47,787 nt of DNA from Candidatus Iainarchaeum sp. (GTDB lineage: Archaea; Iainarchaeota; Iainarchaeia; JAADDC01). Below are positions 483-43,344 of this stretch, piece after piece (within the stretch, counting starts at the first letter, position 1; every line of letters begins with the position of its first letter). The stretch is taken from assembly GCA_030445695.1 (NCBI GenBank), contig JASUTF010000003.1:1-47787 (forward strand). Direction: 5' to 3'. The notes under the pieces are model-generated. The model saw only the letters and a program-made list of their open reading frames with translations, was not told the origin of the DNA and did no database searches. The position numbers were made by a program, and so were the translations under genes.

Positions 483-664
483 GTTAACGTCTCCACCACT
501 TTACCGAGTATCTTTGCCTTGCCACCCGTGGGGATCGCGAGCGTCTCACCACAGGTCAGGCACTTGACGCGGGTAGCGGCCTTGTTAAAGACGATCTGCT
601 CGTTTCCGCACTTCGGGCACTTGACCACGAGGAAACGGGATCTAGGCATGGGTATTGTCTTCAT
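479..664 (-). CDS. rps27e: ribosomal protein eS27 (S27e)
   Basis: 61-aa ORF with a C4 zinc ribbon (CPKCGNEQ ... CLTCGE) and the PTGGKAKI tail typical of S27e. An alternative start MPRSRF lies at 649. Confidence 0.9.
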
Positions 665-1229
665 CTCCTACCACCTCTGCAAGGTTCCTCACCAGCAGGA
701 TATCGGCAATCTCCTGCGGCAGCTCAGCGATCTCGCCGGCAGCGTAGGGGCCGTAGGTCTTGTAGTCGGTCCCTATGAACTCGGGAATTGCCTTTAAGAT
801 CTTAACACGAACGGTCTTTAAACGCTTCTCCTCTTCCTCCTTCTTCCCTTCCTCCTCCTTGAGCCCCACGAACACAAGTGCGCTGTCGCGGTACTTCCTC
901 ACCGTCTCCACAACGTCCCTGTAAAGGTCCTTCTCCCAGCCCACGAGGTTCTCCGGCTCCCACGCCTCGTCGAACATGCTGGCAAGGGCCAGTGAAACGA
1001 TCTTGCGCTGGCGGATCGCGATGATGTCGTTCACGAGCTTCACGAGGTTCGCGAAGAGGACAAGACGCTGGATGTCCTGCTCCTGCCAGGCAAGGTCCAC
1101 TTCCTTCTTCTCCCCCTCTATATACTCCCTCAGCAATCGGTAGAAGTCCGGCTCGAGGGGTGTGAGGCGCGTGCGGGACTGCTTCTCCAGCCGGTAAAGG
1201 TTCCTCAACCGCGAGTAGTTAATCTCCAA
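642..1229 (-). CDS. gins51: GINS complex subunit, Gins51/Gins15 type
   Basis: 195 aa with a helical N-terminal A-domain, an acidic linker and a C-terminal B-domain ([48 protein letters not shown]). It lies immediately downstream of and overlapping priS, the conserved archaeal priS-gins arrangement. Confidence 0.7.
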
Positions 1230-2455
1230 CTTGCAACCCCCTTGCTCAACAGGAATATACTAACATGAAGTGGTAGCTCCACATTTATATCCTCGAACGG
1301 TCCCCACGTCTCGCCGGCGAACTCGAACTCCGGTGCGAAGTCCACGTGGAGGTTCAGGTAGGGCCGCTCCGGGAGAGCCACGGCGTCCCTGTAGGGGTCA
1401 AAGGCATTTAAGTTATCCACGCTCTTGGCAAGCAGGCCTGTGCTCCCGTGTATGGAGTCAGGGACGCGGATCAGGCGGTGAATGTCGACGGACGTGTTGG
1501 TGTCGATCTCCTTCCCCATGAAGGGGGAAAGGGACCGGACAAGGGATGCAACGGACTCGAAGGCGTCCGCCTTCCTCGTGTCTATGAAGGGCCAGATGCC
1601 CTGCCTTATGAGTTCCACGATCCTTTCCCTGTCGCGCATGATCCTGCGGGCAGTGGAGGGGCTAACGCCTCTCCTGACGAGATCTGACACGTCCCGGGCA
1701 GAGGAGAGGATTGAGATGACGCCCCTCGCTATCCTCCCCTTCCAGCCGCCGTCCGTGGGTCTGGGGCCGACAATGGGCATTCTTGGCACGTCGAAGAAGT
1801 AGCGAACGTCGATCTTCTGCCCTGTGACGTATTCCACGATCTCTATGCGCGCCTCCTTGTCCAGTTCCCGGAGGGCAGGAGAGCGGACATGTATGTGGTA
1901 TCCCCTGTTTCCGGAGAAGTTTATGGAGATCTCCTTCTTTGATATGCCAAAATCGTCCACAAGAAAGTCCTTAATGAGGGTCTCGACCTCTTCCTTCAGT
2001 TTTTCCTCTCGCTCGGCGTCAGGAAACGTAACAACCTTCGTGGGCTCCCCGCACCTCGGACAGAACCCAACCCTGAACCCCTTCAGGTCTTTGACAAGGC
2101 CCCTTGCCCCGCAGGACGGGCAGACCCACAGATCGTTGGGCGCGAACAGTCCCAGTTCATCGGCGTCGAACTCGAATATGAGATCCGCTCCCAGGAGCCC
2201 CTTCGCCTCCATGGGGGTCGCTTCAGGCCGCTCAAAGTAGCCCACTGAGTAGGAAATGTAGAGGGGTGCCTCTTCCCGGAGGTAGCGGCGGAACTCCCGG
2301 GGTGAGACGAAGGATATGTGCCGCCGGACGATCTTCCTCCCGTAGTCGCCCACACCGAACTCCCTCTTCTCAAGGTCGGGGGGTGGCGGCACGTCGTGAG
2401 ACCGGTAATACCTGCGGAACGCGTCCTTCAGCACCCTTGCTATCATATCGCTCAC
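1205..2455 (-). CDS. priS: DNA primase small (catalytic) subunit PriS
   Basis: 416 aa carrying the AEP motifs LIFEFDADE (DxD), SGNRGYHIHV (SGxGxH) and LIRVPDSIHGSTGL, plus a zinc knuckle CPSCG...CPRCG. GTG 2455 overlaps the priL stop; an alternative ATG lies at 2446. Confidence 0.9.
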   Translation of the reverse strand: MSDMIARVLKDAFRRYYRSHDVPPPPDLEKREFGVGDYGRKIVRRHISFVSPREFRRYLREEAPLYISYSVGYFERPEATPMEAKGLLGADLIFEFDADELGLFAPNDLWVCPSCGARGLVKDLKGFRVGFCPRCGEPTKVVTFPDAEREEKLKEEVETLIKDFLVDDFGISKKEISINFSGNRGYHIHVRSPALRELDKEARIEIVEYVTGQKIDVRYFFDVPRMPIVGPRPTDGGWKGRIARGVISILSSARDVSDLVRRGVSPSTARRIMRDRERIVELIRQGIWPFIDTRKADAFESVASLVRSLSPFMGKEIDTNTSVDIHRLIRVPDSIHGSTGLLAKSVDNLNAFDPYRDAVALPERPYLNLHVDFAPEFEFAGETWGPFEDINVELPLHVSIFLLSKGVASWRLTTRG

Positions 2456-3354
2456 TGGAGCACCCCCAGATCACGGAGCATCTTGACAAGGGCTGGATCC
2501 GTGGATTCCACCTTCTTCAACCCCCAGGGGCGGATACCCTTCCTCTTGGCGAGGATCAGCTCGTCCTTAAGCCACGATTTCGTTATCTTGCCTCCGCTCT
2601 GCCGGGAAAGCCACTCTTCAAGGACGGGGAGCGCGTCCTCTGGCGCCATACCCTTCACGTTAACGAGGTATGGGGCAAGCCAGAAGAAGATGATACGCTT
2701 CCTCCCGTCGGGCAGACCGGAAGCACCCATGATCGACTCTATGAAGGAGTATCCTTTTGAACTGACGGGTTTTGACCTCTTTATGGGAACCGCTCGCCTC
2801 GCATAGTCAGCAAAGTGCTTCGGCACGCCCGAAACGTCAAGGGGGAGTCCCTTCCTGGCAAGGGTGTACGCCACATCTCCGGCGAAGAGGCGTGCGGTAA
2901 CATCGTCCAGATGCACGATACCGCCCCTCAGGTCCACGTGGTATAGGAGCGTTTCAGGATATATGTGCCTGTAACTCATGTAAACGGGCAGGGGAATGGC
3001 GGAGGGGTCTATACCGAGCTCGGCGAAGAGTTCGGAGGGATCGTGCTGCCGCACACGCTCAGCATAGAAGCGGCCGAGCAGATCGTAGTAATACTCGCTC
3101 CCCAGGATCGACGCGAATATGCGGAAGAGGATGAAATGCAGTATCTCCGTCCTCTCGTCCAGAACGGGCAGGTCAAAACGCCTGGAAAGGATCTCGCGGA
3201 AACGGTCAGAAGCAGCCGTAATTTCTAAATCCCCCACGCCCTCCATGGTGATCCCGAGACGCTCAGCACGCTTCGAGGCAGAGGGGAGAAAGGGGTAGAG
3301 GGCGTAGAACGACACCATGATAACATATGGACGGTGGTAAATGTAAGGATACAC
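2452..3354 (-). CDS. priL: DNA primase large subunit PriL-like, lacking all Fe-S cysteines
   Basis: Has the N-terminal YPF motif (YALYPFLPSASKRAE). The C-terminal region (GLPDGRKRIIFFWLAPYLVNVKGMAPEDALPVLEEWL) matches the PriL-CTD R/H-x-aRFaL-x-FL-x-x-G helix pattern. There is a 4-nt overlap with priS. The 300-aa translation contains no Cys. The likely true start is MVSFYALYPF at 3318. Confidence 0.65.
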   Translation of the reverse strand: MYPYIYHRPYVIMVSFYALYPFLPSASKRAERLGITMEGVGDLEITAASDRFREILSRRFDLPVLDERTEILHFILFRIFASILGSEYYYDLLGRFYAERVRQHDPSELFAELGIDPSAIPLPVYMSYRHIYPETLLYHVDLRGGIVHLDDVTARLFAGDVAYTLARKGLPLDVSGVPKHFADYARRAVPIKRSKPVSSKGYSFIESIMGASGLPDGRKRIIFFWLAPYLVNVKGMAPEDALPVLEEWLSRQSGGKITKSWLKDELILAKRKGIRPWGLKKVESTDPALVKMLRDLGVLQ

Positions 3355-3372
3355 GGTTCGGGTTTCGAACCG
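3354..3372. other. 7-bp-stem hairpin (cggttcg-ggttt-cgaaccg) between the PCNA gene and priL
   Basis: Perfect inverted repeat read directly from the sequence. It lies in the 5' region of priL if priL starts at 3318. Function unknown. Confidence 0.3.
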
Positions 3373-3387
3373 GAAAAGAAAGAGAGT

Positions 3388-4137: not shown

Positions 4138-4141
4138 GGTA

Positions 4142-6002: not shown

Positions 6003-6245
6003 TCACCCCTCCTTGTCAGAGACGCTCAGGGGCTGCTTGAAGTCAAAGAGTGAATCGTCGCTCCCGCCCTGTGGCGGATTCTGCGGTGCGGACGAGCCGC
6101 CGGGTGGCTCCTGCTCTTGGTGTCCGTGCTCCAGAATGTCCAGAATGTAGAGGTAGGCATCGATCAGCTCGTCCAGCTCCACACGCACCCTGTGCGTCTC
6201 CAGGAATATCTTCAACAGCTCGAGGGCGACCTCCTTGTTGTCCAT
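6003..6245 (-). CDS. small hypothetical protein with a helical N-terminus and a Pro/Gly/Gln-rich acidic tail
   Basis: Internal ATG (MDNKEVALELLKIFLETHRV...) of track ORF 6003-6374. The longer form would overlap the neighbouring divergent membrane-protein gene. Its stop directly abuts the KaiC-like stop. Confidence 0.4.
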   Translation of the reverse strand: MDNKEVALELLKIFLETHRVRVELDELIDAYLYILDILEHGHQEQEPPGGSSAPQNPPQGGSDDSLFDFKQPLSVSDKEG

Positions 6246-6278
6246 GTTTTGAAAAGGAGCAGGGGGTATATATTGGTG

Positions 6279-7724
6279 ATGGATCTCAACAAAGCAAAAA
6301 GATATGGGTGGATAGGAATACTTTTTCTCGCCGCCCTGCCCATGTTCTTGTTCAACACGTGGGCCCCATACCACACGGATTCGGCGGGCATTGCGCTAAG
6401 GGCTGAAGAAATACTCCACGGAAAGATACAGCCGGGCTGGAGATGGGGCACAGCTGTTGTGGAGGCGGTCCTCGGGGCACTACCATACTTCATAACGAGG
6501 GACAGGGTCTGGTTGCACATGGCTGGGGCCGCTGCAGGAATAATCGCGTTTCTGGTTGGACTCTACCTGCTGCTCGTAAGGGAGAGCAAAGACAGAACAT
6601 TCGCAGCTATGCTTACGCTGATCGGAGCGTTATCTCCCGCTGTACTGATCACAGGAACCATAGGGAAGGAGGACTTGCTCGCGATAGGAGAGATACTCCT
6701 CGGGGCAGCGATGGCGCCCGCAGGAATGGCACCGGCGGTCGTGGCGGGGGTTCTGTTCGGTCTGGCACTGGCATCCAAGGAGATGTCCTTTGCACTTGTT
6801 TACCTTGCCATTGTATACATCTTCACAAAGAACCGGAAGGCAGCGGCAGTGGCGGCAGGGACAACGATAATAACGTTGCCCCTGTGGCTCCCAATGCTGG
6901 AATTCGTCCTCAGCAGCCGTTCCGTGGGCATGGGAAAGTTCATGGGCTTCTGGAGTGGTTACCCATTCGTGCTGAGCGAACTCATAAAGGGTACGGGAGC
7001 GGCAGCGATTCTGGTGGGAATAGTGGCACTCGTACTGGCCATAAGATCCAAGCGATGGGATAACACCGTTCCACTGCTCCTCGCAGTGTTGTTGATACTG
7101 TATCTGGCGGGTGTGAGCGTCACCAGATACAGGAGTGCCGCGTGGGTCGTGCCGCTGCTCCTCCTGCCCGCCGCGAGACAGGGCGAGAGGTGGATGCGAT
7201 ACGGGATCTACGTATCGCTGCTCGTTGCCTTCATCGCCATGTTCGACATTATGCCAACGCTCGAGTTCAGGGCCGCCACGAACCTGCCAGGAAGCTATCC
7301 CTCCGGGGCGAGGGGCATCTTGGAAAGGAACGGGCTGATCCTTGCAATGGATTCCTCGGCACTGGTCCGCTTCTACACGGATCTGAACGTGAAAACGCAT
7401 AAACCATATCCAACGGAGGAAGAGGCAGCCCAGATACGTAAAGAAGTAGAAGAACTCGCAGGGAAAATGCCAGTATATATTTACCCCGACTACCTGGCGT
7501 ATGACAACGGGACGCTGGCAAGGGCACTGTCGGACCTGAACGTGACGCCCGTTTACACAGCGTGGTATAGGGATTACCACGCCGTCCCGATATATCCGAA
7601 AAAGGAGGAGTGGCTGAACAAGATAAGAGAAGCCGGCTACGTATACTACTTCCTGTCAAAACGGGCGGACAGCATTAACGGCGTTTCAGTCACCGTCGAG
7701 ACGTATAGGATCATCACCCCCTGA
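6279..7724 (+). CDS. polytopic membrane protein, possibly a GT-C fold (ArnT/PMT-like) glycosyltransferase, with a C-terminal soluble domain
   Basis: About 11 hydrophobic segments. The first loop (APYHTDSAGIALRAEEIL) resembles GT-C acidic loops. The start is set at ATG 6279 (MDLNKAKRYGW); the track start at 6117 overlaps the divergent gene. Confidence 0.45.
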   Translation: MDLNKAKRYGWIGILFLAALPMFLFNTWAPYHTDSAGIALRAEEILHGKIQPGWRWGTAVVEAVLGALPYFITRDRVWLHMAGAAAGIIAFLVGLYLLLVRESKDRTFAAMLTLIGALSPAVLITGTIGKEDLLAIGEILLGAAMAPAGMAPAVVAGVLFGLALASKEMSFALVYLAIVYIFTKNRKAAAVAAGTTIITLPLWLPMLEFVLSSRSVGMGKFMGFWSGYPFVLSELIKGTGAAAILVGIVALVLAIRSKRWDNTVPLLLAVLLILYLAGVSVTRYRSAAWVVPLLLLPAARQGERWMRYGIYVSLLVAFIAMFDIMPTLEFRAATNLPGSYPSGARGILERNGLILAMDSSALVRFYTDLNVKTHKPYPTEEEAAQIRKEVEELAGKMPVYIYPDYLAYDNGTLARALSDLNVTPVYTAWYRDYHAVPIYPKKEEWLNKIREAGYVYYFLSKRADSINGVSVTVETYRIITP

Positions 7725-7804: not shown

Positions 7805-8857
7805 TCATTCCCTCAGCCGCACCGCCCTGACGTAACCACGGACGTTGAGGCGGCGGGTCTCCACAACACCCAAGGATTCCAGCTCCTTTATGTAGTTTCG
7901 GAACGCACGGAGCGTTATCTTATCCGCCCTGCGAACGTACTCCTCATACAGCTCCTTCACGGTGAGCTCTCCCCTCTCGCGGAGGATCTCCACGATGGGG
8001 ATGAACTTGGGGTCCACCGACTCGTGGCGCGACGACTTTATGAGCCCCTCAACGCGGCGCACGTGCTCAGGGGTTATTCTATCGGCACCTTCCCGCTCCG
8101 CAAGGACAGCCGCCTCGTAGAGGCAGGAGATTGCTGCCCTGGCGTCGCCGCCCCGCTTCCAGCCGATGGCTGCACAGAGGCCGATTACGTTCTCGTCATA
8201 CGTCCCCTCCGCCAGAGCGATTTTTGCCCTCTCGCGCAGGATGTCCTTGAGCTGGGGAACAGTGTACGGCGAGAACTCCACCTTTCTTGAGAAGAGCGTC
8301 GAGTATATGCGCGGGTCCAGGCGGTAGACGAAGGACTCGGAGTTGGCAATGGTGATGATGACCGTGGGGACTTCAAGAAACTCGTGGAGGCGGGAGAAAT
8401 CGTAGAGAACGTCGGTGGACTCCCTGGAGAGCCGGTCCACCTCGTCCAGAACAATCACGGCACCACGGGAGTCGTTGAGCCGGGCGAATATGCGGTCATA
8501 CGCCTCGTCCGGTGCCACACCCCTCCGGGGGACGGGTATGCGGAGCTCCTTGGCAAGGAAAGAGATGATGGAATACCTTGTGCGGTAGACCCAGCAGTTT
8601 ATGTATGTCTGGAACGTCAGGGGGGAGTAAGAAGAGAGTTCCCGGAGGATATAGCGGACGGATGCCGTTTTCCCCGTTCCCGGCGGGCCGACAACGAATA
8701 TATTCGAGGAGTGCCCAGTATCAAGCGCGTAGGATATTGCAGAGGCGATTTCCTTCATCTGTGCCTCACGGTGGGGGAGAACATCTGGAATGTAGTCCGT
8801 ATCGAGGACTTCCGGGCGGAGGAGGATTGTGGCACGGGGTTCCTCAAACAGGCCCAT
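7805..8857 (-). CDS. cdc6: Orc1/Cdc6 replication initiator
   Basis: 350 aa with GPPGTGKT (Walker A), VIVLDEVD (Walker B), an AAA+ lid and a C-terminal winged helix (LESLGVVETRRLNVRGYVRAVRL). Confidence 0.92.
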   Translation of the reverse strand: MGLFEEPRATILLRPEVLDTDYIPDVLPHREAQMKEIASAISYALDTGHSSNIFVVGPPGTGKTASVRYILRELSSYSPLTFQTYINCWVYRTRYSIISFLAKELRIPVPRRGVAPDEAYDRIFARLNDSRGAVIVLDEVDRLSRESTDVLYDFSRLHEFLEVPTVIITIANSESFVYRLDPRIYSTLFSRKVEFSPYTVPQLKDILRERAKIALAEGTYDENVIGLCAAIGWKRGGDARAAISCLYEAAVLAEREGADRITPEHVRRVEGLIKSSRHESVDPKFIPIVEILRERGELTVKELYEEYVRRADKITLRAFRNYIKELESLGVVETRRLNVRGYVRAVRLRE

Positions 8858-8911: not shown

Positions 8912-9223
8912 TCAACGGAGGAGCTTCCAGCGAATGACTGTAACGGGAGAATCGGGGGTAATATCGGGGTATATGCGGCGCAGGTGCTTTATGAGTGCGT
9001 TGAGCGACTTGAAGCCCTCCATTTTTATCTCGTGCTCCGATAGTTCCCTGAGCTTCTTGACGTAGACGTGCGTGATCTTGGCGCGGGCGATGGGCTTTCC
9101 CCGGACGGCCAGAAAGACGATGTTTCCTGGACGAACGTCGTAAGATCTTCCGTATCGGATGGTGATCCTCTTTTTCCCCGAGAGGACGTCCCTCTCATAC
9201 TCGGGGCGGAAATGGAGCATCAC
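8912..9223 (-). CDS. ASCH-domain protein, YqfB-like (candidate N4-acetylcytidine amidohydrolase)
   Basis: 103 aa. DVLSGKKRITIRYG ... ALIKHLRRIYPD ... VTVIRWKLL parallels my recollection of E. coli YqfB along its whole length. There is a 4-nt overlap with the upstream tmcA. Confidence 0.75.
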   Translation of the reverse strand: MMLHFRPEYERDVLSGKKRITIRYGRSYDVRPGNIVFLAVRGKPIARAKITHVYVKKLRELSEHEIKMEGFKSLNALIKHLRRIYPDITPDSPVTVIRWKLLR

Positions 9224-11502
9224 GATACTTCACCCAGGTACCATCTCGCCAGCCCGTAGAGGATCCTGTCGAGACGGCGCGCCACCTTCATGGGATCCTT
9301 GCCAAAGACGTCGCCGACGCCCTTCCACGTCCTCTTCTTCAGCACCTTCTCAATGAGGTATAAACGGTCCTTCTCCTCCATAGGGGGCTCCATCTTGCCG
9401 ATGAAGTAGTTGATGGTCATCCGGTATATGACCTCGGAGAGGGCGTCATAGTGCAGGCCACCCTCCACCATTCGCTTTAACTTCCTCTTCTCGGGGGTCG
9501 TCAGGTCGAGCGGGACGTCCCTCTTCTCGCCGGAAGAGAAGAGGAGAAGGGCAACCCGCGCCTCCATGTTCCTGTAGAAGTTGTCCAGCTCGTATGCGAG
9601 GCGCAACTTCATGCCGAAGTTTGAAACGTTCACTATGTCCTTGATGGCCGGACGCAGCGGGTAGAGAACCGCCGTGGAGTACTCTCCCGACTCGGGGTTG
9701 CGTTTCGGCGAGACGTGCACAGGGATAAACCCGTTCTTCATCCAGAAGCGGAGGAGCATGTCAGAGGAGCCGAAAACAGCCCCCACCCACGCATAGTCAT
9801 TATCTCTGGCGTAATCAATGAGGTTCTTCAGGGCAAACGACCCGATGCCCTTCCCCTGGAGTTCGGGGTGCGTGGCGATCCTCACCACGCGGAGGCCCTT
9901 GGCACGGGCGAAGTTGTCGTATCCGTAATACTTCAGCATGAGGTCGGGGATTATGTTGCCCTGGACGATCTCCCCCTCCTTGAGGAGGTCAATGACCGCC
10001 TTCGGAAGGCCGCCCTCTTCGGCTATCTGGAGGGAACAGACGATCTTTCCGGACTCCGTTCTAACGGCGAAGGCGTTCTGGTTAGGGGCGTCTGCAAGTA
10101 TTGCAACGTCGCGCGGGTTGTTTCTGTAGTGCGCGTAAACGTATATGCCGATGAACTGGCGGAGCGTTTCCTCGTCCTCGAGGAAGAGCTTCTCAACGTC
10201 CAGTTTCTCAAATACCAGACGGCCCTCTGCCACCTGCTTCAGATCTTCCTCCGTCAGGTCGGCCGGCTCGGCGTCGAGGAGGAAAACGTCGTAGAGCCAT
10301 TGCTCGATGGGGTCGCCCTCGCCGTAGCGGATCGGCTCGCTCATGCGGAGTGTTTTCACCTCGAACTTCTCCTGCAACGCCGGGAGAAAGCGGTACTGGA
10401 AGAGGCGGCCCGTTCCCTCGTAACCGTGGGTTGTAGTAGCGAAAACGATGCGTTTGTAACGCTGCATGAACGAGCGGAGTATGGACACGTATATGCCCGC
10501 CGCCTCGTCCACTACCAGTATATCCGCCTTCCTCTCCACCGCCTCCAGCGGCTCAAGGAAAACGACTTCTCCACCCTCCTTAACGCTAATTTCCCGCTTC
10601 TTCTCCTTGTACTCCTTTCCAAGCGCCTCAAGACCCGTCCTGATGAACCTGAACACCTCTTCGGCGTTCTGGAAGGAGGGAGCGGTCACAACGACCTTCC
10701 ACTTCTTGGAAGAGAGTATTCCGGCAAGGGCAAGACCCATGGCCGCCGATTTCCCCCTTCCCCTGTCTGCAAGTATGACGTAGGCGTGCTTCTTCGCCTT
10801 CGGGACGTTCTCAAGGGCATGGATAACGTCGATCTGATCCTGCGTCAGGGCGAGTTGATATATCTCATCGGGGAATTCGTGCTCCTTGGGTATCTTCAGC
10901 TTCCTTTTCCTCTTCTTTGCCTTCTTCTCCTTCGGGAGTTTAACGGGCTTCCCCTCGTCGGAGAGGATGTATATTCCGTCGTGCTCGAAGAGCTTCTTAA
11001 CAACGCGGTTGAGGAAGATGTCCCTGCAGTCCTTCACGGAGTATGGAGGGGTAACGACGTACTGTTCATGGAAGAAGAGTTTGGAAGATGCCCACTTCGG
11101 GAGTTCAGGGACGAGTAGGACAATAACGCCGGGGCCGCGAACCGTCTCGACGATGATGCCTATGTCCCGGGGCGGGAAGTTCTCGTACGCGTCCAGAACG
11201 AGAACATCGTATGTGCGCCCCAGAACGGAGGAAGCAATGGCGAATGGCTTCTTCTGGACGAGGTACCCGAGGCCGTGAACGTTACGGGCAAACTCCTTGA
11301 ATCGACGTTCCCCGATGTCCGACTCCTTGGGGAACTCCGCAAAGTAGAGGAGATCCCTTCCGACGAAGTCCCTCGCCTCGCGTAGGATCTGCCCCACTAC
11401 CTTCATGCCCTTCTTCCAGTCGCCGGATATGACGAAGAGCCGCCTCTGACGTGTAGCCGCAGCCGTCTCGAGTGCCTTCCTCACAAATTCCATGTCACTC
11501 AC
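9220..11502 (-). CDS. tmcA: RNA cytidine N4-acetyltransferase TmcA/NAT10 family (tRNA(Met) cytidine acetyltransferase)
   Basis: 760 aa with a DUF1726-like N-terminus, a helicase-type P-loop (ADRGRGKSAAMGLALA), a GNAT motif (RIATHPELQGKGIGSFAL) and a C-terminal tRNA-binding helical domain. Confidence 0.9.
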   Translation of the reverse strand: MSDMEFVRKALETAAATRQRRLFVISGDWKKGMKVVGQILREARDFVGRDLLYFAEFPKESDIGERRFKEFARNVHGLGYLVQKKPFAIASSVLGRTYDVLVLDAYENFPPRDIGIIVETVRGPGVIVLLVPELPKWASSKLFFHEQYVVTPPYSVKDCRDIFLNRVVKKLFEHDGIYILSDEGKPVKLPKEKKAKKRKRKLKIPKEHEFPDEIYQLALTQDQIDVIHALENVPKAKKHAYVILADRGRGKSAAMGLALAGILSSKKWKVVVTAPSFQNAEEVFRFIRTGLEALGKEYKEKKREISVKEGGEVVFLEPLEAVERKADILVVDEAAGIYVSILRSFMQRYKRIVFATTTHGYEGTGRLFQYRFLPALQEKFEVKTLRMSEPIRYGEGDPIEQWLYDVFLLDAEPADLTEEDLKQVAEGRLVFEKLDVEKLFLEDEETLRQFIGIYVYAHYRNNPRDVAILADAPNQNAFAVRTESGKIVCSLQIAEEGGLPKAVIDLLKEGEIVQGNIIPDLMLKYYGYDNFARAKGLRVVRIATHPELQGKGIGSFALKNLIDYARDNDYAWVGAVFGSSDMLLRFWMKNGFIPVHVSPKRNPESGEYSTAVLYPLRPAIKDIVNVSNFGMKLRLAYELDNFYRNMEARVALLLFSSGEKRDVPLDLTTPEKRKLKRMVEGGLHYDALSEVIYRMTINYFIGKMEPPMEEKDRLYLIEKVLKKRTWKGVGDVFGKDPMKVARRLDRILYGLARWYLGEVS

Positions 11503-12256
11503 CGTGGGCGTCCGCTATGTAGACCTCCGTGATCACCGAGAGGGACAGAACAAAGGAGATCGCCTGGTAGAGGACCAGGAGGAAGTCAGATGCCCACGGA
11601 GCCCGGAGAGCAATGAAGTCAAAGATGTAGAGGAGAAGGGTGGTAACGATGGAGACGGCGAGCATGTAGAGGATGATACGGATCCAGCGTCTCCTGCCAA
11701 CGAGGACGCCGTCACGCAGTGCCTTGGAAACGGTGTCTGCATCGATGACGAGGGCTGCCATGGAGGGCGCGACCACCGGTGTGTAGACGAGGAGGAAGAT
11801 GAGGAAGAGGGCGAACATGACAGTAAGTAAAGATATGCTGTAGGAGAAGTAGAGCATGAGGGTGAAGAAAACGGACACCGGTGCAAAAACGATTATGGAA
11901 AGGATTATGAATGGGATCAGAACGTCAACGGCCCTCTTGAACGGGTTCTCGGGGTAGCCCACGCGTTTCTTGGCGATCCAGCCGATGACCACGAGTGACA
12001 GATACGTCATCAGGACTCCGTAGATGAGGACGGAGAGGAGGACAAGGGGGTCTGAGAGGGCGGAGAGGGCATCGTAGAATGCAGACCGCATGGCGAGCAG
12101 GGGATCGGGCGATGCAAGGATCGTGAAGAAGTATGACGACTGGACCTCCGCAAGAGCAGATCCGAAGGCGTAGAACATACCGTAGAGGAAGAGAATGACC
12201 ACCGCGAGCAGGCCCAGATCAAAGGCGTCCGCCAGAACCCTCTTGAAGACGGCCAT
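11495..12256 (-). CDS. polytopic membrane protein, function unknown
   Basis: 253 aa with 5-6 hydrophobic helices. A TATA box lies about 27 nt upstream. Confidence 0.6.
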   Translation of the reverse strand: MAVFKRVLADAFDLGLLAVVILFLYGMFYAFGSALAEVQSSYFFTILASPDPLLAMRSAFYDALSALSDPLVLLSVLIYGVLMTYLSLVVIGWIAKKRVGYPENPFKRAVDVLIPFIILSIIVFAPVSVFFTLMLYFSYSISLLTVMFALFLIFLLVYTPVVAPSMAALVIDADTVSKALRDGVLVGRRRWIRIILYMLAVSIVTTLLLYIFDFIALRAPWASDFLLVLYQAISFVLSLSVITEVYIADAHGE

Positions 12257-12337: not shown

Positions 12338-12496
12338 ATGGTGGAGGAGGAGAAGGAGAAGGAAGAGTACTACGAGGGTGAGGAGATCGACGAGGAAGAG
12401 TGGGAAGAAGAGGACTGGGACGAGGAAGAGTGGGACGAGGACTGGGACGAAGATGAGGACATAGAGGACGAGGACTACGACGAGGAAGAGTGGTAA
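12338..12496 (+). CDS. hyper-acidic Trp-rich miniprotein, 52 aa (below the ORF-track size cutoff)
   Basis: Own translation: MVEEEKEKEEYYEGEEIDEEEWEEEDWDEEEWDEDWDEDEDIEDEDYDEEEW*. It has its own TATA box. The 3' end overlaps the convergent AEP gene by 22 nt. Confidence 0.45.
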   Translation: MVEEEKEKEEYYEGEEIDEEEWEEEDWDEEEWDEDWDEDEDIEDEDYDEEEW

Positions 12497-13218
12497 GGGT
12501 CAAATTCTTCCAACTTCTTCCTACTGACGGGCAGCACAACAAGGCCGGAGATGCCGTTCAGCGTATACGGTAGACGGGCCAGGGAAACGCCGCCCGCGGT
12601 CACGGGAACGTCCACACCGTATGAGGCGTAGCGTCTTGCAAGTTCCACCCGCTCCTCTATAGTATAGAGGAACGTGTCCTCATCGCGGACGTGGATGTGG
12701 AAACCCCTGCCAGAGAAGACGATGCGTAAACGGGAGAACTCCTCGGCCAGGGCATCATAAAGGCGGATCACAGCATCTTTAACGGCGGGGAACTCCTCGG
12801 GGCCCACCTCATCACGCCTTTTCCCGGTCACCCTTTCCGGATCAACGTCGAACATCAGCTCCTGGCCCAGATAGTTGGGGCAGCGTTCGCATAGGTTCCT
12901 ACGCCTGAAGAACTTCAGGGGGCAGCCATAGCAGTATTCGGGGTCGGAAACAACGTTCCTCCAGTAATAGACGCCCTCCGGCAGGTATTTCAGGAGCTTG
13001 GCACGCAGGGCCTTGGGGTTCCGCACGTTCCGGAGATACACCATCCTGTATCCCTGCCGAACGAGGGAGAGCATGCGGTCAGTTGCTATACGCGTGTACC
13101 AGCCGGGGTTTATGGCAAAAACAGGGGTTGCAGATATGGTTCGGGCCCACGAGAAGGCATTCCGTGCATCGAAGGATCTGTAGAAGACCCTCCTCTCCTC
13201 GAGTGTGGGGGGAGGCAC
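12475..13218 (-). CDS. second, compact PriS-family archaeo-eukaryotic primase (AEP) / primase-polymerase-like protein
   Basis: 247 aa with all three AEP motifs: ELMFDVDPE (DxD), FSGRGFHIHV (SGxGxH) and LARLPYTLNGISGLVV (compare LIRVPDSIHGSTGL in PriS at 1205-2455). It has a PriS-like N-terminus (LEERRVFYRSF...LPEGVYYWRN) and a CxxC...CxxC knuckle (CYGCP...CERCP). GTG start. Confidence 0.75.
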   Translation of the reverse strand: MPPPTLEERRVFYRSFDARNAFSWARTISATPVFAINPGWYTRIATDRMLSLVRQGYRMVYLRNVRNPKALRAKLLKYLPEGVYYWRNVVSDPEYCYGCPLKFFRRRNLCERCPNYLGQELMFDVDPERVTGKRRDEVGPEEFPAVKDAVIRLYDALAEEFSRLRIVFSGRGFHIHVRDEDTFLYTIEERVELARRYASYGVDVPVTAGGVSLARLPYTLNGISGLVVLPVSRKKLEEFDPYHSSSS

Positions 13219-13248
13219 AATAGATAATGGTTTCCGGGGGAAATATAT
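13219..13248. promoter_or_regulatory. 30-bp head-to-head promoter region shared by the AEP gene and lhr
   Basis: caatagataatgg (about 25 nt before lhr ATG 13249) and aaatatatat (about 25 nt before AEP GTG 13218, read on the other strand). Both TATA-like elements are interleaved. Confidence 0.4.
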
Positions 13249-15990
13249 ATGGTGAACGGGGAGGAAAAGATCCTTGAACTCTGGAAGAAGCGGGGCCTCA
13301 GGGAGCCCACAGAGGTGCAGAAGAGAGCATACCCCCTCATACGCAGTAGCAAGAATGTCCTGATCATCGCACCGACGGGCTCCGGGAAAACGGAGGCAGC
13401 CCTCATTCCCGTGCTTGCAGAGATGCTGAACACGGAAGCGAGACCTGTGACGCTGTTATACATAACTCCCCTCCGCGCCCTGAACCGCGATATGCTGGAA
13501 CGCATACGGTGGTGGGGAGAACATCTGGGGTTCCGCGTGGACGTCCGGCACGGGGACACAACCCAGTACAGGCGATCCAAGCAGGCCCGCGAGCCGCCAC
13601 ACATACTCATAACGACGCCCGAGTCGCTGCAGGCCATGCTCCCCGCGGAGAAGATGGGAGCACACCTGAGGAACGTGAAATACGTCATAATCGACGAGAT
13701 ACACGAGCTGGTGGGGGAGAAGCGAGGATACCAGCTGGCCATTGCCCTGGAGCGGCTCAGGGAGAAGACGGGGCACGAGTTCCAGAGAATAGGGCTCTCG
13801 GCAACCGTGGGTTCCCCCGATCTCGTGGCACACTTCCTGGGCGGGAAAGGGCGAAGCGTGGAGATCGTGGACGTTTCCATGGAGAAAGATTACCGCATAA
13901 CCGTGACATACCCCACGCCAGACAGGAAGATGCGGGAGGAGGCGAAGAAGCTCGGGCTCTCCCCAGACGTCTACGCACGCGTTCTGAAGCTGAAGGAAAT
14001 CGTGGAGCGGCACAGGCAGGTAATCACCTTCGTGAACACGAGGAACATGGCGGAACAGTTGTCCCTGTATTTCTCGGCGTTCCACGACAGGACAGACGTG
14101 CATCACTCATCCCTGTCGAGGGACGTGCGCCTTTCCGTTGAGAAAACGTTCAAGTCGGGCGAGATAAAACACCTCATTGCGACGTCATCCATGGAGCTGG
14201 GCATAGACGTGGGGGAAGTGGACGCCGTGGTCCAGTACGGATCCCCGAGGCAGGTGACCCGGCTAATCCAGAGGGTGGGGCGTTCGGGGCACAGGTGGGA
14301 CCGCCCATCCATCGGATACATCATTGCCCTGGACGGAAACGATTTCGTGGAGGCAGCCGTGATTGCAAAACTCGCCACGAGGAAGCAGTTAGAGCCCATC
14401 GCGCAGGAGGAAAAGCCGTATGACGTCCTTGCACACCAGATCGCCGGCATCCTCATGGACTGGGGGGAGATAGACATAAGGGAGGCATACGAGATCGTGC
14501 GCCGGGCCCAGCCCTATGAGAACCTGAGCGAGGAGGAGTTCTGGGAGGTTGTAAAGCAGCTGGAGTCGGAGCGCTTCCTTCGGGTGAGGGGAGACAGGAT
14601 CACCAAGTCAAGGGACACGTGGAGGTATTATTACTACAACCTGAGCATGATCCCCGACGAGGAGCGATTCTACGTGGTGGACACCATAAGCGGCAAGCGT
14701 GTGGCCACGCTGGACGAGGACTTCGTCACATCATACCTGGAAAACGGCGTCGTCTTCGTGGTCAAGGGCCGACCGTGGCGTGTGGTCACCATAGAGGACA
14801 AGAACGTCTACGTGGAGCCGTCTGAGAGTTTGGTGGGAGCAATACCGGCGTGGATAGGCGAGATGATTCCCGTGGAGAAGAGTGTGGCGGAGGAGGTCTG
14901 GCGCGAGCGGAGGAGAATCGGAAAGGGCATGGAGACCATAGGGGACGTGGCCAGCGTGACGGACATCGACAAGGTGCGGGAGCTCTTCAGGGACGTTCCG
15001 GGGGAGAACGAGGTACTAATAGAGAAGAGTGAAGAATATGTAGTCATACACGTCCCCCTCGGCTCTAAAGGAAATACAACGCTCTCCCGGCTGATAGCAG
15101 CCGAGATATCGAGGAGGTATGGCATGCCCGTTCGCGTGTTCTCCTCCCCCTACGCAATAGTCATCGAGTTCCCCGCCCCGGGTTTCCCCGTGGAGGAGGT
15201 TGAAAAGATCCTGAAGACGGTGGACCCGGAGGTGCTCGACATCATACTGGAAAACCACATAGCCAAGACGAATCTCTTCAAGTGGCGGTTCATACACGTG
15301 GCAAAGCGGTTTGGCCTCATATCAAAGAACGCAAAACTGGACAGGATAAACGTGCGCCGGCTCGTTGATGCCCTTACTGATTCTCCTGTCTACCGCGAGA
15401 CGCTGAAGGAGCTCTACGCGGAGAAACTCGACGTGGACGCCGTGAAGGAACTCCTGGAAGACATACGTGCTGGGAAGCGGAAGATCACAATACGGGATGG
15501 TATAGGTAAAATAGGAAAGATGGAGCTCTCGCGGGCGCTCCAGGTCCCCGAACTCGTGAGCCCTGACACGCCGGAGCACACCATCGTGGAACTCTTCAAG
15601 CAAAGGGTCTTAGAGAAGAAGGTAACGCTCATGTGCATCTCCTGCGGCGCCGAACACGTATACAAGGTGTCAGAGGTGCCGGAGCAGCCGAAGTGCCCGA
15701 GATGCGGATCCCCCCTCGTCGCGGTGGTCCACAACGTGGAGAAGGCAAGGGAGATATTGAAGAAAAAGAAGCTAAGCAGGGCAGACGAGAGGAAGATGAC
15801 TGACTTGATTAGGAGCGCGGAACTGGTAAAGGAGTTCGGCAAGAAGGCAGTCATAGCGATGGCGGTAACGGGGATCGGCTCGCAGACAGCGGCACGCATC
15901 TTGAGAGTCCCCTACAGCGAGGAGGAGTTCTGGAAGGCACTTCTGGACGCGGAAAGGAACTACTACAGGACAAAGATGTTCTGGGGCTAG
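13249..15990 (+). CDS. lhr: Lhr-type large ATP-dependent SF2 helicase
   Basis: 913 aa with APTGSGKTEAA (motif I), LLYITPLRALN (Ia), DEIHE (II), SATV (III), VGRSGHR (VI), an Lhr/DEAD-associated middle region and a C-terminal zinc ribbon (CISCG...CPRCG). Confidence 0.85.
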   Translation: MVNGEEKILELWKKRGLREPTEVQKRAYPLIRSSKNVLIIAPTGSGKTEAALIPVLAEMLNTEARPVTLLYITPLRALNRDMLERIRWWGEHLGFRVDVRHGDTTQYRRSKQAREPPHILITTPESLQAMLPAEKMGAHLRNVKYVIIDEIHELVGEKRGYQLAIALERLREKTGHEFQRIGLSATVGSPDLVAHFLGGKGRSVEIVDVSMEKDYRITVTYPTPDRKMREEAKKLGLSPDVYARVLKLKEIVERHRQVITFVNTRNMAEQLSLYFSAFHDRTDVHHSSLSRDVRLSVEKTFKSGEIKHLIATSSMELGIDVGEVDAVVQYGSPRQVTRLIQRVGRSGHRWDRPSIGYIIALDGNDFVEAAVIAKLATRKQLEPIAQEEKPYDVLAHQIAGILMDWGEIDIREAYEIVRRAQPYENLSEEEFWEVVKQLESERFLRVRGDRITKSRDTWRYYYYNLSMIPDEERFYVVDTISGKRVATLDEDFVTSYLENGVVFVVKGRPWRVVTIEDKNVYVEPSESLVGAIPAWIGEMIPVEKSVAEEVWRERRRIGKGMETIGDVASVTDIDKVRELFRDVPGENEVLIEKSEEYVVIHVPLGSKGNTTLSRLIAAEISRRYGMPVRVFSSPYAIVIEFPAPGFPVEEVEKILKTVDPEVLDIILENHIAKTNLFKWRFIHVAKRFGLISKNAKLDRINVRRLVDALTDSPVYRETLKELYAEKLDVDAVKELLEDIRAGKRKITIRDGIGKIGKMELSRALQVPELVSPDTPEHTIVELFKQRVLEKKVTLMCISCGAEHVYKVSEVPEQPKCPRCGSPLVAVVHNVEKAREILKKKKLSRADERKMTDLIRSAELVKEFGKKAVIAMAVTGIGSQTAARILRVPYSEEEFWKALLDAERNYYRTKMFWG

Positions 15991-16412
15991 CGGACAAGAA
16001 CGACGAGGCGGTTTCCCTCGCGATCTGGATAGGCGTCGAGAAGGACAGAATTTCCATTCACGTCAAAATCCGCGGACAAATACCAGTTGCTCCCGTTCAC
16101 GAGCCGAACAACCTTGCCGCCACGGCTCTGGATCTCACTCACCAGTGCATCAGGGCCTCCGGGAACGGGGGAGTAGTAGAGGAAGTAGCGGCCGCCGGTG
16201 CTGTGGCGCATCACGAGGGACGCGTCGGGATAGGCGGAAGTCACGATCCCGTGGGCAAAAACTTCTAAAGGGGCGACGGGGCGAATGGGCACGGGCTTTT
16301 CTTCAGAAGAAAGGACGGAATAACCAGTGATACGTATTTGGGGAGCGAGGCGCCAGGCAGCATAGACAACGACAAGGAGGAGTAGGATCTTTACTATGCG
16401 GGGGACGTGCAT
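15987..16412 (-). CDS. N-terminally membrane-anchored or secreted protein, unknown function
   Basis: 141 aa. The hydrophobic N-terminus (IVKILLLLVVVYAAW) is followed by a beta-rich domain. Confidence 0.55.
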   Translation of the reverse strand: MHVPRIVKILLLLVVVYAAWRLAPQIRITGYSVLSSEEKPVPIRPVAPLEVFAHGIVTSAYPDASLVMRHSTGGRYFLYYSPVPGGPDALVSEIQSRGGKVVRLVNGSNWYLSADFDVNGNSVLLDAYPDREGNRLVVLVR

Positions 16413-16462: not shown

Positions 16463-17242
16463 ATGCCCACCGTAGTGGTATCCAAGAGGGACATGGCGTC
16501 CGTTCTCATCGGTGAATACTTAACGGAGAACTACTTCGAGAAAACGGACAAGACCTTTGGCAACTACCACGTCTTCAGATACAAAAACGCGGACCTCATA
16601 ATCATCGACACGGAGCACATATATGCGGACTGGCTGGAAGAAAAGTACCCGTCGGACCTCTACATCGTTGCATCTCGCCACTCCGCGGAGTCGGGGATTC
16701 CGTGCCTCACGGTGCACACAACGGGAAACTGGGGGGACGCCATGTATGGCGGCAAGAGCAGAACGCTGTCGAGGGCCCCCGCACAGCACATGCTCTCGGC
16801 GCTCCGCTACCTGAAGGAACACCCCCTCGAAGGATTCTCCGTCTCCTACGAGGTGACGCATCACGGCCCCACCACAGAAACCCCCATCATGTTCGTGGAG
16901 GTGGGGAGCACGGAAAACGAGTGGGGAAACGAGGAAGCGGCAGCGGTGGTGGCCGAGGCAATAATCGCCGGGCTCGAGCCGGAGAAGGTGCCGACCGCCA
17001 TAGGGGTGGGCGGCGGCCACTACGCACCCCGCTTCACCGAGATAGCCCTGAAGAAGAGTATAGCGTTCGGCCACATGGCACCGAGATACGCCTTCGACTA
17101 TTTGGACGAGTACATGCTTCGTCAGGCGGTGGAAAAGACCGTCCCGAGGCCGGAGTACTACGCGATGCACGGGGTGAGCGAAGAGGTAAAGGAGACATTG
17201 GAGGAAATAGTGGAGGAATACGGTCTGCAGAGGATCAGGTGA
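16463..17242 (+). CDS. dtdA: D-aminoacyl-tRNA deacylase, archaeal DTD2 type
   Basis: ASRHSAESGIPCLTVHTTGNWG, SYEVTHHGPT, GVGGGHYAPRF and IAFGHMAPRYA match the DTD2 signature blocks. 259 aa. Confidence 0.88.
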   Translation: MPTVVVSKRDMASVLIGEYLTENYFEKTDKTFGNYHVFRYKNADLIIIDTEHIYADWLEEKYPSDLYIVASRHSAESGIPCLTVHTTGNWGDAMYGGKSRTLSRAPAQHMLSALRYLKEHPLEGFSVSYEVTHHGPTTETPIMFVEVGSTENEWGNEEAAAVVAEAIIAGLEPEKVPTAIGVGGGHYAPRFTEIALKKSIAFGHMAPRYAFDYLDEYMLRQAVEKTVPRPEYYAMHGVSEEVKETLEEIVEEYGLQRIR

Positions 17243-18617
17243 GCTGTTCCCCTATAACCTCGTCGAGCTCTCTTAGGAACTCCTCCTCCGCTCCCCTTGG
17301 TATCCTTGCACCGGCTGCGGGCCGGTGGCCGCCCGCCTCTCCGCCCACGTGGGCAGCTGCCCTCCTCATGGCCTCCGCCAGATCCAGACCCTTGCGCACA
17401 AGGGAAGAACTGGCACGGGCAGACACCTTGACGAAGCCCTCTTCCTCATACGCCATGCCCACTATGGGCCGGTCAGGCGGGACGATACCGGAACCGTAGA
17501 CCATGCCCGCCACGATGCCCACGAGGGACGCCGGAATGAAGGAACGGGCGTGGAAGAAGTAAAAGTTTCCGTAATCCTCTATGCCGTACTTCTCCACCCA
17601 CTCTATTCCCCTACGCAGGGCCTCCCTGTGCTCGTGCAGAAGTTTGAGCGCCTCTGAATACCAGCGGTCGCGGTCGCCCATGGCAACGTGAACGCCGACC
17701 TCCGGGCGTCCATGCCGTCCACAGGCGTTGAGGAGCGTAGCGTACTCCCGGACGTCACGCAGGGGGGAGTGCAGATCCTCGTCCGTGAGCTCGTACACCT
17801 CGCCTATGAGCTTGGCGATTTTTTCCTCGCTCCAACCGGCACGGGAGAGGTAGAGGGCAAGTTCCGTGAAGAGATGTCTTTTCTCCTCCTCGTTCAGATC
17901 CACATATGATATCCAGACGCCCTCGCGCACGTATTCTATCCCTGCACGGCGGAGAAGGTCAAAGACGGCGTCCTCGTTCGCCGTCAGCCCGGGAAGCACG
18001 GGATCAGACGAGTAGACGAACATGTAAGGCAGCGGCCTCGATGCCCTGCCGTAGAGCGCCAGATCCCTGTATGCGAATACCTTTCCGGAAGCGATGGCAT
18101 CCCTTAGAACAACATCACGGTTGTAGCCGGTTAGGGCGCCCCGCACGAGCTGCACGTCGCCCACCGCACCGACCACCGCAACGGGTGCAAGGGAGATGTC
18201 GCCGGTGAGCACCCTGGCGAGGGCGTATGCCACGCCTGCCCCGCTGATCTCATGGGCCCCGTCCAGGCCGAAGAAGTGGGGGTGCAGAAGAAGGGGGTAG
18301 TCCTCCCCTTTCGGTATCTGGTGGTGATCCAGAACCACGAAGGGCTTCCCGAAACTGCGACGGAGCGTGGGGAGCTGGCCCACGCCGAGGTCCGCAAAGA
18401 TGAAATGCTCCCCCATGTCCTGGATACGCTCGATGTCGTCGGTGTAGAGCTGCTTGAGGTTGATAAAACGCACTTCCTTACCCATCTGCTCCAGGGCGGA
18501 GACGAGGATGGCCGTGGATGTGATACCGTCCGCGTCGTAGTGCCCCACCACAACAACGTCGTCCCAGCCACGCACAACGTTCGCTATCCTCTTTGCCAGT
18601 TCCAGAAAGCCGTCCAC
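17235..18617 (-). CDS. DHH/DHHA1 phosphoesterase, archaeal RecJ/Cdc45-like nuclease (GAN/HAN family)
   Basis: VVVGHYDADGITS (motif I/II), VVLDHHQIP (DHH) and GGEAGGHRPAAGARI (DHHA1 GGH). 460 aa. Confidence 0.8.
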   Translation of the reverse strand: MDGFLELAKRIANVVRGWDDVVVVGHYDADGITSTAILVSALEQMGKEVRFINLKQLYTDDIERIQDMGEHFIFADLGVGQLPTLRRSFGKPFVVLDHHQIPKGEDYPLLLHPHFFGLDGAHEISGAGVAYALARVLTGDISLAPVAVVGAVGDVQLVRGALTGYNRDVVLRDAIASGKVFAYRDLALYGRASRPLPYMFVYSSDPVLPGLTANEDAVFDLLRRAGIEYVREGVWISYVDLNEEEKRHLFTELALYLSRAGWSEEKIAKLIGEVYELTDEDLHSPLRDVREYATLLNACGRHGRPEVGVHVAMGDRDRWYSEALKLLHEHREALRRGIEWVEKYGIEDYGNFYFFHARSFIPASLVGIVAGMVYGSGIVPPDRPIVGMAYEEEGFVKVSARASSSLVRKGLDLAEAMRRAAAHVGGEAGGHRPAAGARIPRGAEEEFLRELDEVIGEQLT

Positions 18618-42189: not shown

Positions 42190-42213
42190 GTGGTGATTAT
42201 GGATTTTGGGCAT

Positions 42214-42221
42214 TTATAAAC
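42214..42221 (-). promoter_or_regulatory. TATA box for 41839-42189
   Basis: tttataaa centred about 28 nt upstream of ATG 42189. Confidence 0.45.
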
Positions 42222-42248
42222 CTGGCTAGGTGCGATGCTCCGAAATTT

Positions 42249-42260
42249 GTTATACATAAC
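42249..42260. repeat. box copy A: gttatacataac (GTTAT-AC-ATAAC palindrome)
   Basis: Read directly from the sequence. Confidence 0.6.
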
Positions 42261-43324: not shown

Positions 43325-43344
43325 AGTATGCAACCCCCTTAACT

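Follow-up and report, generated by a model that had tools for sequence, protein, structure and literature searches.

Does an archaeal primase-like protein encoded back to back with a DNA helicase work together with that helicase, or have the two genes simply been inherited side by side? The question is raised by a 47,787-nucleotide stretch of DNA from Candidatus Iainarchaeum sp. (assembly GCA_030445695.1, contig JASUTF010000003.1, positions 1 to 47,787; hereafter the window), in which a 247-aa archaeo-eukaryotic primase (AEP)-type protein stands divergent to a 913-aa Lhr-type helicase across 30 bp. A first-pass annotation, made from the sequence without database searches, had located both open reading frames (ORFs) and the gap at 13219-13248 correctly and had proposed that they constitute a dedicated AEP-Lhr module. 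Our analysis leads to a different reading, which we consider probable: the 247-aa protein is a minimal paralogue of PriS, the primase catalytic subunit, and probably an active auxiliary enzyme, and it lies beside Lhr because of a gene order inherited within its lineage. We have coined the name AEP2 for the minimal PriS paralogue family that includes this protein. The locus consists of the following elements:

12475..13218, minus strand: AEP2, a trimmed PriS paralogue of 247 aa with a GTG start and a TAG stop (ORF, PF01896, homologues, AF2/Foldseek)
13219..13248, no strand: divergent intergenic region of 30 bp, AATAGATAATGGTTTCCGGGGGAAATATAT, with two TATA-like elements (sequence)
13249..15990, plus strand: Lhr helicase, 913 aa, aLhr1-type architecture with core, C-terminal zinc ribbon and helix-hairpin-helix-like motif (Pfam, motifs)

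AEP2 has a PriS fold and a complete catalytic set

The profile search that the first-pass annotation had recommended gives a match of AEP2 to PF01896 (DNA_primase_S) above cutoff (40 bits vs. a gathering score of 26.8, E 6.8e-10), which is partial and covers residues 143-197 only; the closest homologues are found at E 5.5e-98. A ColabFold/AlphaFold2 (AF2) model built from 34 homologues has a predicted local distance difference test score (pLDDT) of 93.9 and a predicted TM-score (pTM) of 0.91. Its best Foldseek matches are the Pyrococcus PriS structures 1g71, 1v33 and 9f26 (E 2-4e-10, query TM-score (TMq) 0.71-0.74), with human and yeast Pri1 and Sulfolobus PriS ranking next, and the top 42 matches in the Protein Data Bank (PDB) are all PriS/Pri1 chains. 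Viral AEPs are weaker structural matches (best E 2e-6, TMq <=0.56). AEP2 thus has its fold in common with PriS/Pri1 (PF01896; P. furiosus p41, 1g71; P. horikoshii, 1v33; TMq 0.71-0.74), and it also has in common with these proteins the N-terminal layout and, in register, the DxD, SGRGxH and D...RxP..L motifs. The relevant segments of the gene are:

12880..12933, minus strand: family-specific four-Cys insert, CYGC...CERC, residues 96-113, before DxD, putative zinc site (translation, alignment)
12835..12861, minus strand: motif I, ELMFDVDPE, residues 120-128, with catalytic D124 and D126 (translation, alignment)
12688..12717, minus strand: motif II, FSGRGFHIHV, residues 168-177 (translation, alignment)
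12541..12612, minus strand: motif III region, DVPVTAGGVSLARLPYTLNGISGL, residues 203-226 (translation, alignment)

We judged the catalytic columns in an alignment of 173 AEP2 family members and 41 canonical PriS sequences. The columns of D124 and D126 are each occupied by aspartate in 169 of the 173 family members, and in 40/41 and 41/41 canonical PriS, respectively; S169, G170, R171, G172, H174 and H176 are conserved in both sets alike. D203 pairs with D280 of P. furiosus PriS, just as D124 and D126 pair with D95 and D97, and the columns of R190, T207, R215, P217 and L220 likewise coincide with canonical PriS, the last three falling within the segment LARLPYTLNGISGL at residues 213-226. The complete AEP catalytic set claimed by the first-pass annotation therefore stands, with all columns in register with the 41 canonical PriS, and the misaligned catalytic residues that it had named as a reason to abandon its proposal are not what the alignment shows. 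Because the set is correctly placed, AEP2 is probably an active nucleotidyltransferase. Other parts of the original description hold up equally well, namely a PriS-like N-terminal layout (ERRVFYRSF at residues 8-16, PEGVYYWRN at residues 80-88), a cysteine cluster ahead of the DxD motif (CYGC at residues 96-99 and CERC at 110-113, preceding residues 124-126) and the absence of the helical insertion domain.

The last of these points is evident from the distance between motifs II and III, which is ~40 aa in the AEP2 family (161 members) vs. ~140 aa in P. furiosus PriS; this spacing means that the inserted small domain is absent from AEP2, which overall is ~100 residues shorter than PriS. The zinc-binding elements differ as well. 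A CxH, part of a CxH...C element, is retained after DxD in 124/173 family members but has been lost in the window clade, where AEP2 lacks the PriS zinc knuckle following DxD: there is no Cys or His within 45 residues after DxD in the family members P0001-P0004, P0007 and P0024. The window protein instead has the extra four-Cys insert ahead of DxD; a CxxC...CxxC is present before DxD in 51 of the 173 family members, the window protein among them, and canonical PriS is gapped at these columns. The confidence of the AF2 model dips at the insert (pLDDT 68-87), and its binding of zinc is putative. E81, R87, Q119 and P127-E128 are signature residues of the family, and the A, A-D, D and H typical of PriS are replaced in AEP2 by Q119, P127-E128, G209 and N221, respectively. 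G209 occupies a column with an invariant D in canonical PriS, and the N221 column has H in 37/41 canonical PriS, whereas the 173 family members have N in 105 cases and H in 64. AEP2 fails to reach the cutoffs of the PriS equivalog model TIGR00335 (45.8 bits, cutoff 143.5) and of NF001639 (60.8, cutoff 577) and NF001641 (51.7, cutoff 326).

Losses and substitutions of this kind could suggest that AEP2 is a structural leftover of PriS without catalytic activity. The missing domain and canonical zinc knuckle, N221 and G209 would all fit, as would the rate of evolution: the nonsynonymous divergence (dN) of AEP2 from its close relatives is 0.28-0.46, ~2.5x the dN of Lhr, where synonymous divergence (dS) is saturated so that only the relative dN is usable. 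However, the metal- and nucleotide-binding residues are nearly invariant in 173 members and the model is confidently folded, which makes a dead relic very improbable; the values fit a constrained yet faster-evolving gene.

Single-domain AEPs of the LigD-Pol/PolDom (2iru, 2r9l) and PrimPol types offer another comparison. Like AEP2, they are ~250-290 aa long and have no obligate large subunit encoded nearby, and a role in repair or damage tolerance is plausible for both. Structurally, AEP2 is clearly closer to PriS (TMq 0.74) than to LigD-Pol (TMq 0.5), which is matched at only E 6e-5 to 2e-4. None of the LigD-Pol partners Ku, ligase and phosphoesterase is seen in the window, although for the ligase this means that none appears among the annotated ORFs, no search having been aimed at it.

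AEP2 belongs to a widespread archaeal family

Scanning one genome per GTDB species, we found relatives of AEP2 in 331 species-representative genomes, with labels that include Archaeoglobi, Bathyarchaeia, Thermoplasmatota, Methanomicrobia/Halobacteriota, Micrarchaeota, Iainarchaeota, Woesearchaeota, Altiarchaeales and Freyarchaeota. Family proteins are 230-295 aa long; a word-indexed search with AEP2 returned 146 relatives that measure 240-295 aa. When 1.84 billion representatives were searched with a profile, 71 matched at E<=1e-30, mostly full-length and in a single stretch, with some fragments, and canonical PriS (320-425 aa, matched in 2-3 stretches) appears in the same search from ~E 1e-21. 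Phylogenetic placement relative to canonical PriS, another check that had been proposed at the outset, gives a distinct group: in a rough neighbour-joining tree, computed from BLOSUM62 distances, rooted at the midpoint and lacking bootstrap support, all 173 family members fall into one group and all 41 canonical PriS into another. Within this tree the window protein and P0002-P0004 are one clade, sister to P0006, P0007 and P0130, and these two clades sit next to P0024 and P0159.

Database names of family members are "DNA primase", "DNA primase catalytic subunit" or "DNA primase small subunit domain-containing protein", and AEP2 proteins of the window clade are annotated "hypothetical protein". 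We found no literature description of the paralogue family or of an AEP-Lhr link.

Lhr adjacency is confined to one lineage

The helicase core of the window Lhr is complete, with DEAD (PF00270), Helicase_C (PF00271), WH_Lhr (PF19306) and DEAD_assoc (PF08494) domains all above cutoff, Walker A at residue 41 and DEIH at residue 149. The nearest solved structure is that of M. smegmatis Lhr (5v9x). Beyond the core, CISC at residue 796 and CPRC at residue 816 are followed by VTGIGSQTAARIL, which resembles a GIG helix-hairpin:

15634..15705, plus strand: Lhr C-terminal CxxC-x16-CxxC, residues 796-819 (motif, weak zinc-ribbon Pfam matches at 796-823)

A database search with the C-terminal 163 aa gave 3 matches only. 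The archaeal aLhr1 group has been defined by a Cys-rich C-terminal motif and a helix motif in addition to the Lhr core (Hajj et al. 2021, PMC8301817), and its RecA1, RecA2, WH and Domain 4 as well as the Cys-rich motif are all present in the window protein, which by its architecture would belong to aLhr1. Bacterial ligase-associated clusters (TIGR04120-04123) have an Lhr-core protein with an adjacent ligase, metallo-beta-lactamase (MBL) exonuclease and PdeM, none of which stands beside the window Lhr, and Lhr itself scores 412 bits against the ligase-associated damage-response model TIGR04121 (cutoff 850). Hidden Markov models (HMMs) made from the neighbour clusters of AEP2 (see below) detect neither a metallophosphoesterase (MPE) nor an MBL exonuclease across the window, and no ligase is present among the annotated ORFs, ligases not having been the target of any search.

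If AEP2 and Lhr formed a dedicated pair, their adjacency should recur. We surveyed the neighbourhoods of 84 loci, of which 80 were fetched with 8 kb on each side and four (L081-L084) are contigs of the sister clade. In tblastn with the window Lhr against the 80 loci, matches were obtained in L001-L003 only (3/80). These are the closest relatives, in which Lhr is 78-84% and AEP 54-65% identical to the window proteins. The other 77 have no Lhr within 8 kb and represent at least 16 further context groups. In the sister-clade contigs AEP is 45-49% and Lhr 65-77% identical, and the head-to-head order is kept, with L084 containing an Lhr fragment only. Adjacency to Lhr is thus found in the window and seven related contigs (L001-L003, L081-L084), all of one lineage, with Lhr-AEP gaps of 6-55 bp and only ~8 paired AEP2-Lhr sequences. 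Separately, in L081 (3168-5945) gene calling divides Lhr into ORFs of 165 aa and 759 aa, either because of an assembly error or because the gene is frameshifted or a pseudogene.

The surroundings of the pair are informative. In the Lhr-AEP lineage the two genes are part of a ~10-gene collinear block that runs from a RecJ/GAN-like DHH protein and a D-Tyr-tRNA deacylase (DTD) through Lhr facing AEP to an acidic ORF, a membrane protein, the RNA cytidine acetyltransferase TmcA, an ASCH protein and Orc1/Cdc6. The nearest outgroup (L027, L037, L051 and L056; AEP ~41% identical) retains AEP, the acidic ORF, the membrane protein, TmcA and ASCH, but it has no Lhr and instead has ribosomal protein S3Ae and a CarS-like gene upstream. 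Since the whole block is syntenic within the lineage, the adjacency of AEP2 and Lhr needs no selection on the pair.

The first-pass proposal can now be weighed. AEP2 and an aLhr1 helicase would make up a co-regulated repair or repriming module, at least in the window lineage, in which a stalled fork or gap would be opened or remodelled by the helicase, with synthesis across it by the minimal AEP. The proposal gains from the persistence of the head-to-head order in the window, L001-L003 and L081-L084 (gaps 6-55 bp) while identity drops to 45% for AEP and 65% for Lhr. It suffers from the absence of Lhr within 8 kb in 77/80 loci, including the nearest outgroup that keeps the AEP-to-ASCH segment, from the synteny of the entire 10-gene block, and from a published survey of archaeal Lhr genes (Hajj et al. 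2021, PMC8301817), in which no primase is a conserved neighbour and the genes that recur beside aLhr1 and aLhr2 are limited to a glycosyltransferase and a phosphoesterase of the MPE type; none of the known Lhr groups has been described as having an AEP neighbour. Further points on either side are given below, and taken together they make the module, in our view, unlikely. The first-pass annotation had said that its own idea would be undermined if the paralogue proved widespread and its linkage to Lhr not conserved, and this is largely what a family spread over 331 genomes, with Lhr near it in 3/80 loci and four sister contigs of one lineage, amounts to. The Lhr-AEP2 order is therefore best described as a gene-order trait of one uncultured thermophilic lineage and not as a general archaeal system.

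The Lhr protein also matches the PADLOC BrxHI and SngC helicase models, and plasmids and viruses frequently encode stand-alone AEPs (PMC5862659). Together these could point to a mobile-element or defence primase-polymerase that has been domesticated or integrated beside a BrxH-like Lhr. AEP2, though, has no PADLOC and no PHROGs match and resembles viral AEPs less well than cellular PriS; its neighbours are housekeeping genes, and no other BREX component is present; its GC content of 0.578 is equal to that of its neighbours; and synteny is stable across the lineage. A mobile origin was already disfavoured and we regard it as scarcely credible.

The putative divergent promoters are ordinary for a compact genome

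The 30-bp region contains the TATA-like elements AATAGATAAT at 13219-13228 and ATATATATTT at 13249-13240 on the minus strand, each centred ~26 nt upstream of its own start codon and abutting the start codon of the other gene. Such interleaved boxes had been noted in the first-pass annotation; we see them too, and both are kept in L001-L003, a conservation that also speaks for the module. The arrangement would correspond to two back-to-back promoters giving leaderless transcripts. The further claim that it implies coupled regulation does not follow. The window has a coding density of ~95% and its divergent gaps measure 6, 18, 30, 50, 50, 50 and 72 bp, so that a gap of 30 bp is ordinary for this genome, which counts against the module. 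In addition, with start sites 30 bp apart the initiation complexes would overlap, making mutual exclusion as plausible as co-activation. Back-to-back TATA-like boxes would then represent the usual packing of divergent, probably leaderless genes in a compact genome. An Rfam scan of the window gave no match.

AEP2 neighbours in other lineages

Elsewhere in the family AEP2 adjoins different genes. MCM is encoded head-to-head with AEP2 at ~210 bp in L004, L023, L034 and L038, with some of the MCM proteins carrying inteins; L078 was rejected as an additional case because its match to the MCM HMM is a ribonucleotide reductase sharing the intein. In L013, L024, L030 and L069, which represent an Archaeoglobaceae clade, an MBL/RMMBL (beta-CASP) protein is divergent to AEP2 at 214-980 bp, and its best NCBIfam match is the ligase-associated damage-response exonuclease TIGR04122 (E 3e-25, below cutoff). 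Six Bathyarchaeia loci (L017, L041, L045, L048, L054 and L055) have a metallophosphoesterase matching TIGR00024 and TIGR04123 (PdeM) 1.1 kb downstream of AEP2, with an unrelated FBPase/IMPase gene in between. Within the fetched loci, HMMs from the MPE and MBL neighbour clusters find no members outside their own clusters. A universal neighbour can be dismissed: the commonest cluster is present in 14/80 loci only and reflects synteny within one clade.

DNA-related contexts make up 4 of ~17 context groups, most contexts being plain metabolism. In this comparison, which is post hoc and in which each association is confined to one clade, four such contexts are more than we would have expected of a random gene and are a weak pointer to a role of AEP2 in DNA repair. 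For the module, it is of interest that AEP2 elsewhere adjoins a TIGR04122-like exonuclease or, at 1.1 kb, a TIGR00024/TIGR04123 phosphoesterase, because TIGR00024 is a recurrent Lhr neighbour family (Hajj et al., PMC8301817). Set against this are the FBPase/IMPase gene that parts AEP2 from the phosphoesterase in Bathyarchaeia and the lack, by HMM, of an MPE or exonuclease in the window itself, where a ligase, not specifically searched for, is also missing from the annotated ORFs.

Several observations weigh against inherited gene order as the full explanation, or against AEP2 as a plain copy of the PriS catalytic domain. The 84 loci covered are a subset of at least 331. The Lhr-AEP junction has remained tight (6-55 bp) while AEP fell to 45% identity, and a functional pairing would also yield a tight junction despite divergence of AEP. 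The exonuclease and MPE found next to AEP2 in other lineages resemble the partners of bacterial Lhr in ligase-associated clusters, an analogy that may link AEP2 to an Lhr pathway. Because AEP2 has N221 for the usual H and G209 for an invariant D, its substrate handling may differ from that of PriS. Finally, the AEP2 sequence occurs only in DNA metagenomes (subsurface, sediment, vent, oil).

These points could be taken further. With AEP2 beside aLhr1 in the window lineage, beside an exonuclease in an Archaeoglobaceae clade and near a phosphoesterase in a Bathyarchaeia clade, the family might supply the polymerase that is missing from a DNA damage response centred on Lhr in archaea, in which the helicase would unwind, the nucleases would clean ends and the minimal AEP would fill in or reprime. 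We regard this idea as doubtful.

The window contains a canonical PriS in a replication-gene island

The comparator for AEP2 is encoded ~10 kb away, and the island around both genes includes the following:

1205..2455, minus strand: canonical PriS, 416 aa, comparator (TIGR00335, 158 bits vs. a cutoff of 143.5)
2452..3354, minus strand: PriX-domain protein, 300 aa, just upstream of PriS (NF033412, PDB matches)
5271-6002: KaiC/RadA-like ATPase
7805-8857: Orc1/Cdc6
17235-18617: DHH-CID RecJ/GAN homologue

The segment 1205-3354 had been described as a PriS/PriL pair in the first-pass annotation. PriS is borne out by the TIGR00335 score, but the presumed PriL is a PriX-domain protein. Its last 95 residues share homology with Sulfolobus PriX (NF033412, 79.5 bits, cutoff 50), the protein matches PDB entries 4wyh and 5of3 chain C at ~E 1e-18, and the ~195-aa N-terminal extension has no match to the PriL family. 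PriX is regarded as crenarchaeal; the window lineage is labelled Euryarchaeota or Methanobacteriota although it has this PriX-like protein. The cluster at 1-4891 on the minus strand comprises two PCNA paralogues, the PriX-like protein, PriS, Gins51, ribosomal protein S27e and aIF2-alpha, and is of the complete PPsG-LSIN type. This order is that of the PPsG-LSIN supercluster, which is complete mainly in Crenarchaea (Berthon et al. 2008, PMC2643942). With the PPsG-LSIN cluster, Orc1/Cdc6, AEP2, Lhr and the RecJ/GAN-like DHH protein, the window is a replication-gene island. Since the canonical PriS is in the canonical replisome context, AEP2 is an extra copy.

An extra copy in such an island could be an alternative catalytic subunit of the replicative primase that acts with PriL or a PriX-like protein, for example in origin firing or restart. 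This would be in keeping with the PriS-like N-terminus and core of AEP2, with the presence of Orc1/Cdc6, PCNA, PriS, the PriX-like protein and the DHH-CID RecJ/GAN homologue in the same island, and with MCM lying head-to-head at ~210 bp in four loci (L004, L023, L034, L038). No PriL-like or PriX-like gene adjoins AEP2 in any of the 84 loci, however; AEP2 lacks the small PriS domain and evolves faster than expected of a core replisome gene, and the PCNA-PriS-Gins context, where AEP2 is not found, belongs to canonical PriS. A replicative subunit is therefore a poor prospect in our estimation.

Other features of the window

Downstream of AEP2, a mini-gene at 12338-12496 on the plus strand encodes a very acidic, aromatic-rich protein of ~52 aa, MVEEEKEKEEYYEGEEIDEEEWEEEDWDEEEWDEDWDEDEDIEDEDYDEEEW, with a TTTATAAA box upstream. 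It is convergent with AEP2, overlaps its last 22 nt and stands between AEP2 and the operon encoding the membrane protein, TmcA and ASCH. We read its acidic sequence in the window as well as in L001-L003, L027, L037, L051 and L056, with a terminal (D/E)EW where read, and a 45-50 aa gene is called at this position in L081 and L083. Its product has no Pfam and no NCBIfam match. Serine-rich C-terminal tails, considered as an AEP2 family feature on account of P0004 and P0006 (L082, 3612-4478), were rejected because they are the antisense frame of this mini-gene: in the window (12376-12477) a serine-rich frame runs for 33 codons past the TAG stop of AEP2. The tails are probably read-through or gene-calling artefacts.

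The operon itself (8912-12256, minus strand) encodes a 253-aa membrane protein without a family match, TmcA and the 103-aa ASCH protein in overlapping reading frames, and is followed in the window by Orc1/Cdc6 (7805-8857). It is also present in L027, L037, L051, L056, L081 and L083 and is conserved more deeply than the Lhr adjacency. A 141-aa ORF at 15987-16412 on the minus strand, with a hydrophobic start and no Pfam/NCBIfam match, shares 4 nt with the 3' end of Lhr. A 535-aa ORF at 6117-7724 on the plus strand has no Pfam match, and at 42001-44000 the GC content is 0.43 vs. ~0.55 elsewhere, with short ORFs of 60-124 aa only and no Rfam match.

A likely auxiliary enzyme in archaeal DNA maintenance

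On the reading we favour, AEP2 would be carried on the chromosome and inherited vertically, as part of a separate family of minimal PriS proteins in archaea. The PriS catalytic domain is retained whole, including the motif I aspartates, the nucleotide-binding SGRGxH, the motif III aspartate and RxP..L(N/H), while the small domain between motifs II and III has been lost; the window clade has lost the post-DxD zinc knuckle as well and carries the four-Cys insert. AEP2 would most likely be a template-dependent nucleotidyltransferase that acts on DNA as an auxiliary enzyme, plausible jobs being gap filling, lesion bypass and repriming. The replicative primase role would fall to canonical PriS, 10 kb away in the PCNA-PriX-PriS-Gins51 cluster, and the head-to-head order with an aLhr1-type Lhr would be inherited within one lineage, inside the larger replication-gene island.

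The most interesting part of these results is the widespread and unstudied family of minimal PriS paralogues. To our knowledge, Y-family polymerases and canonical excision repair are missing from many archaea, and AEP2 may bear on how such archaea tolerate DNA damage. PriS itself has been proposed to function in lesion bypass (PMC4538821). A second, stripped-down PriS paralogue, conserved in many groups of archaea and with its active site intact, would be an obvious candidate for this kind of damage tolerance, and as a compact AEP it should be easy to study biochemically. The pairing with Lhr would matter only if an interaction proves true, and on present evidence it is a gene-order trait at the level of one lineage.

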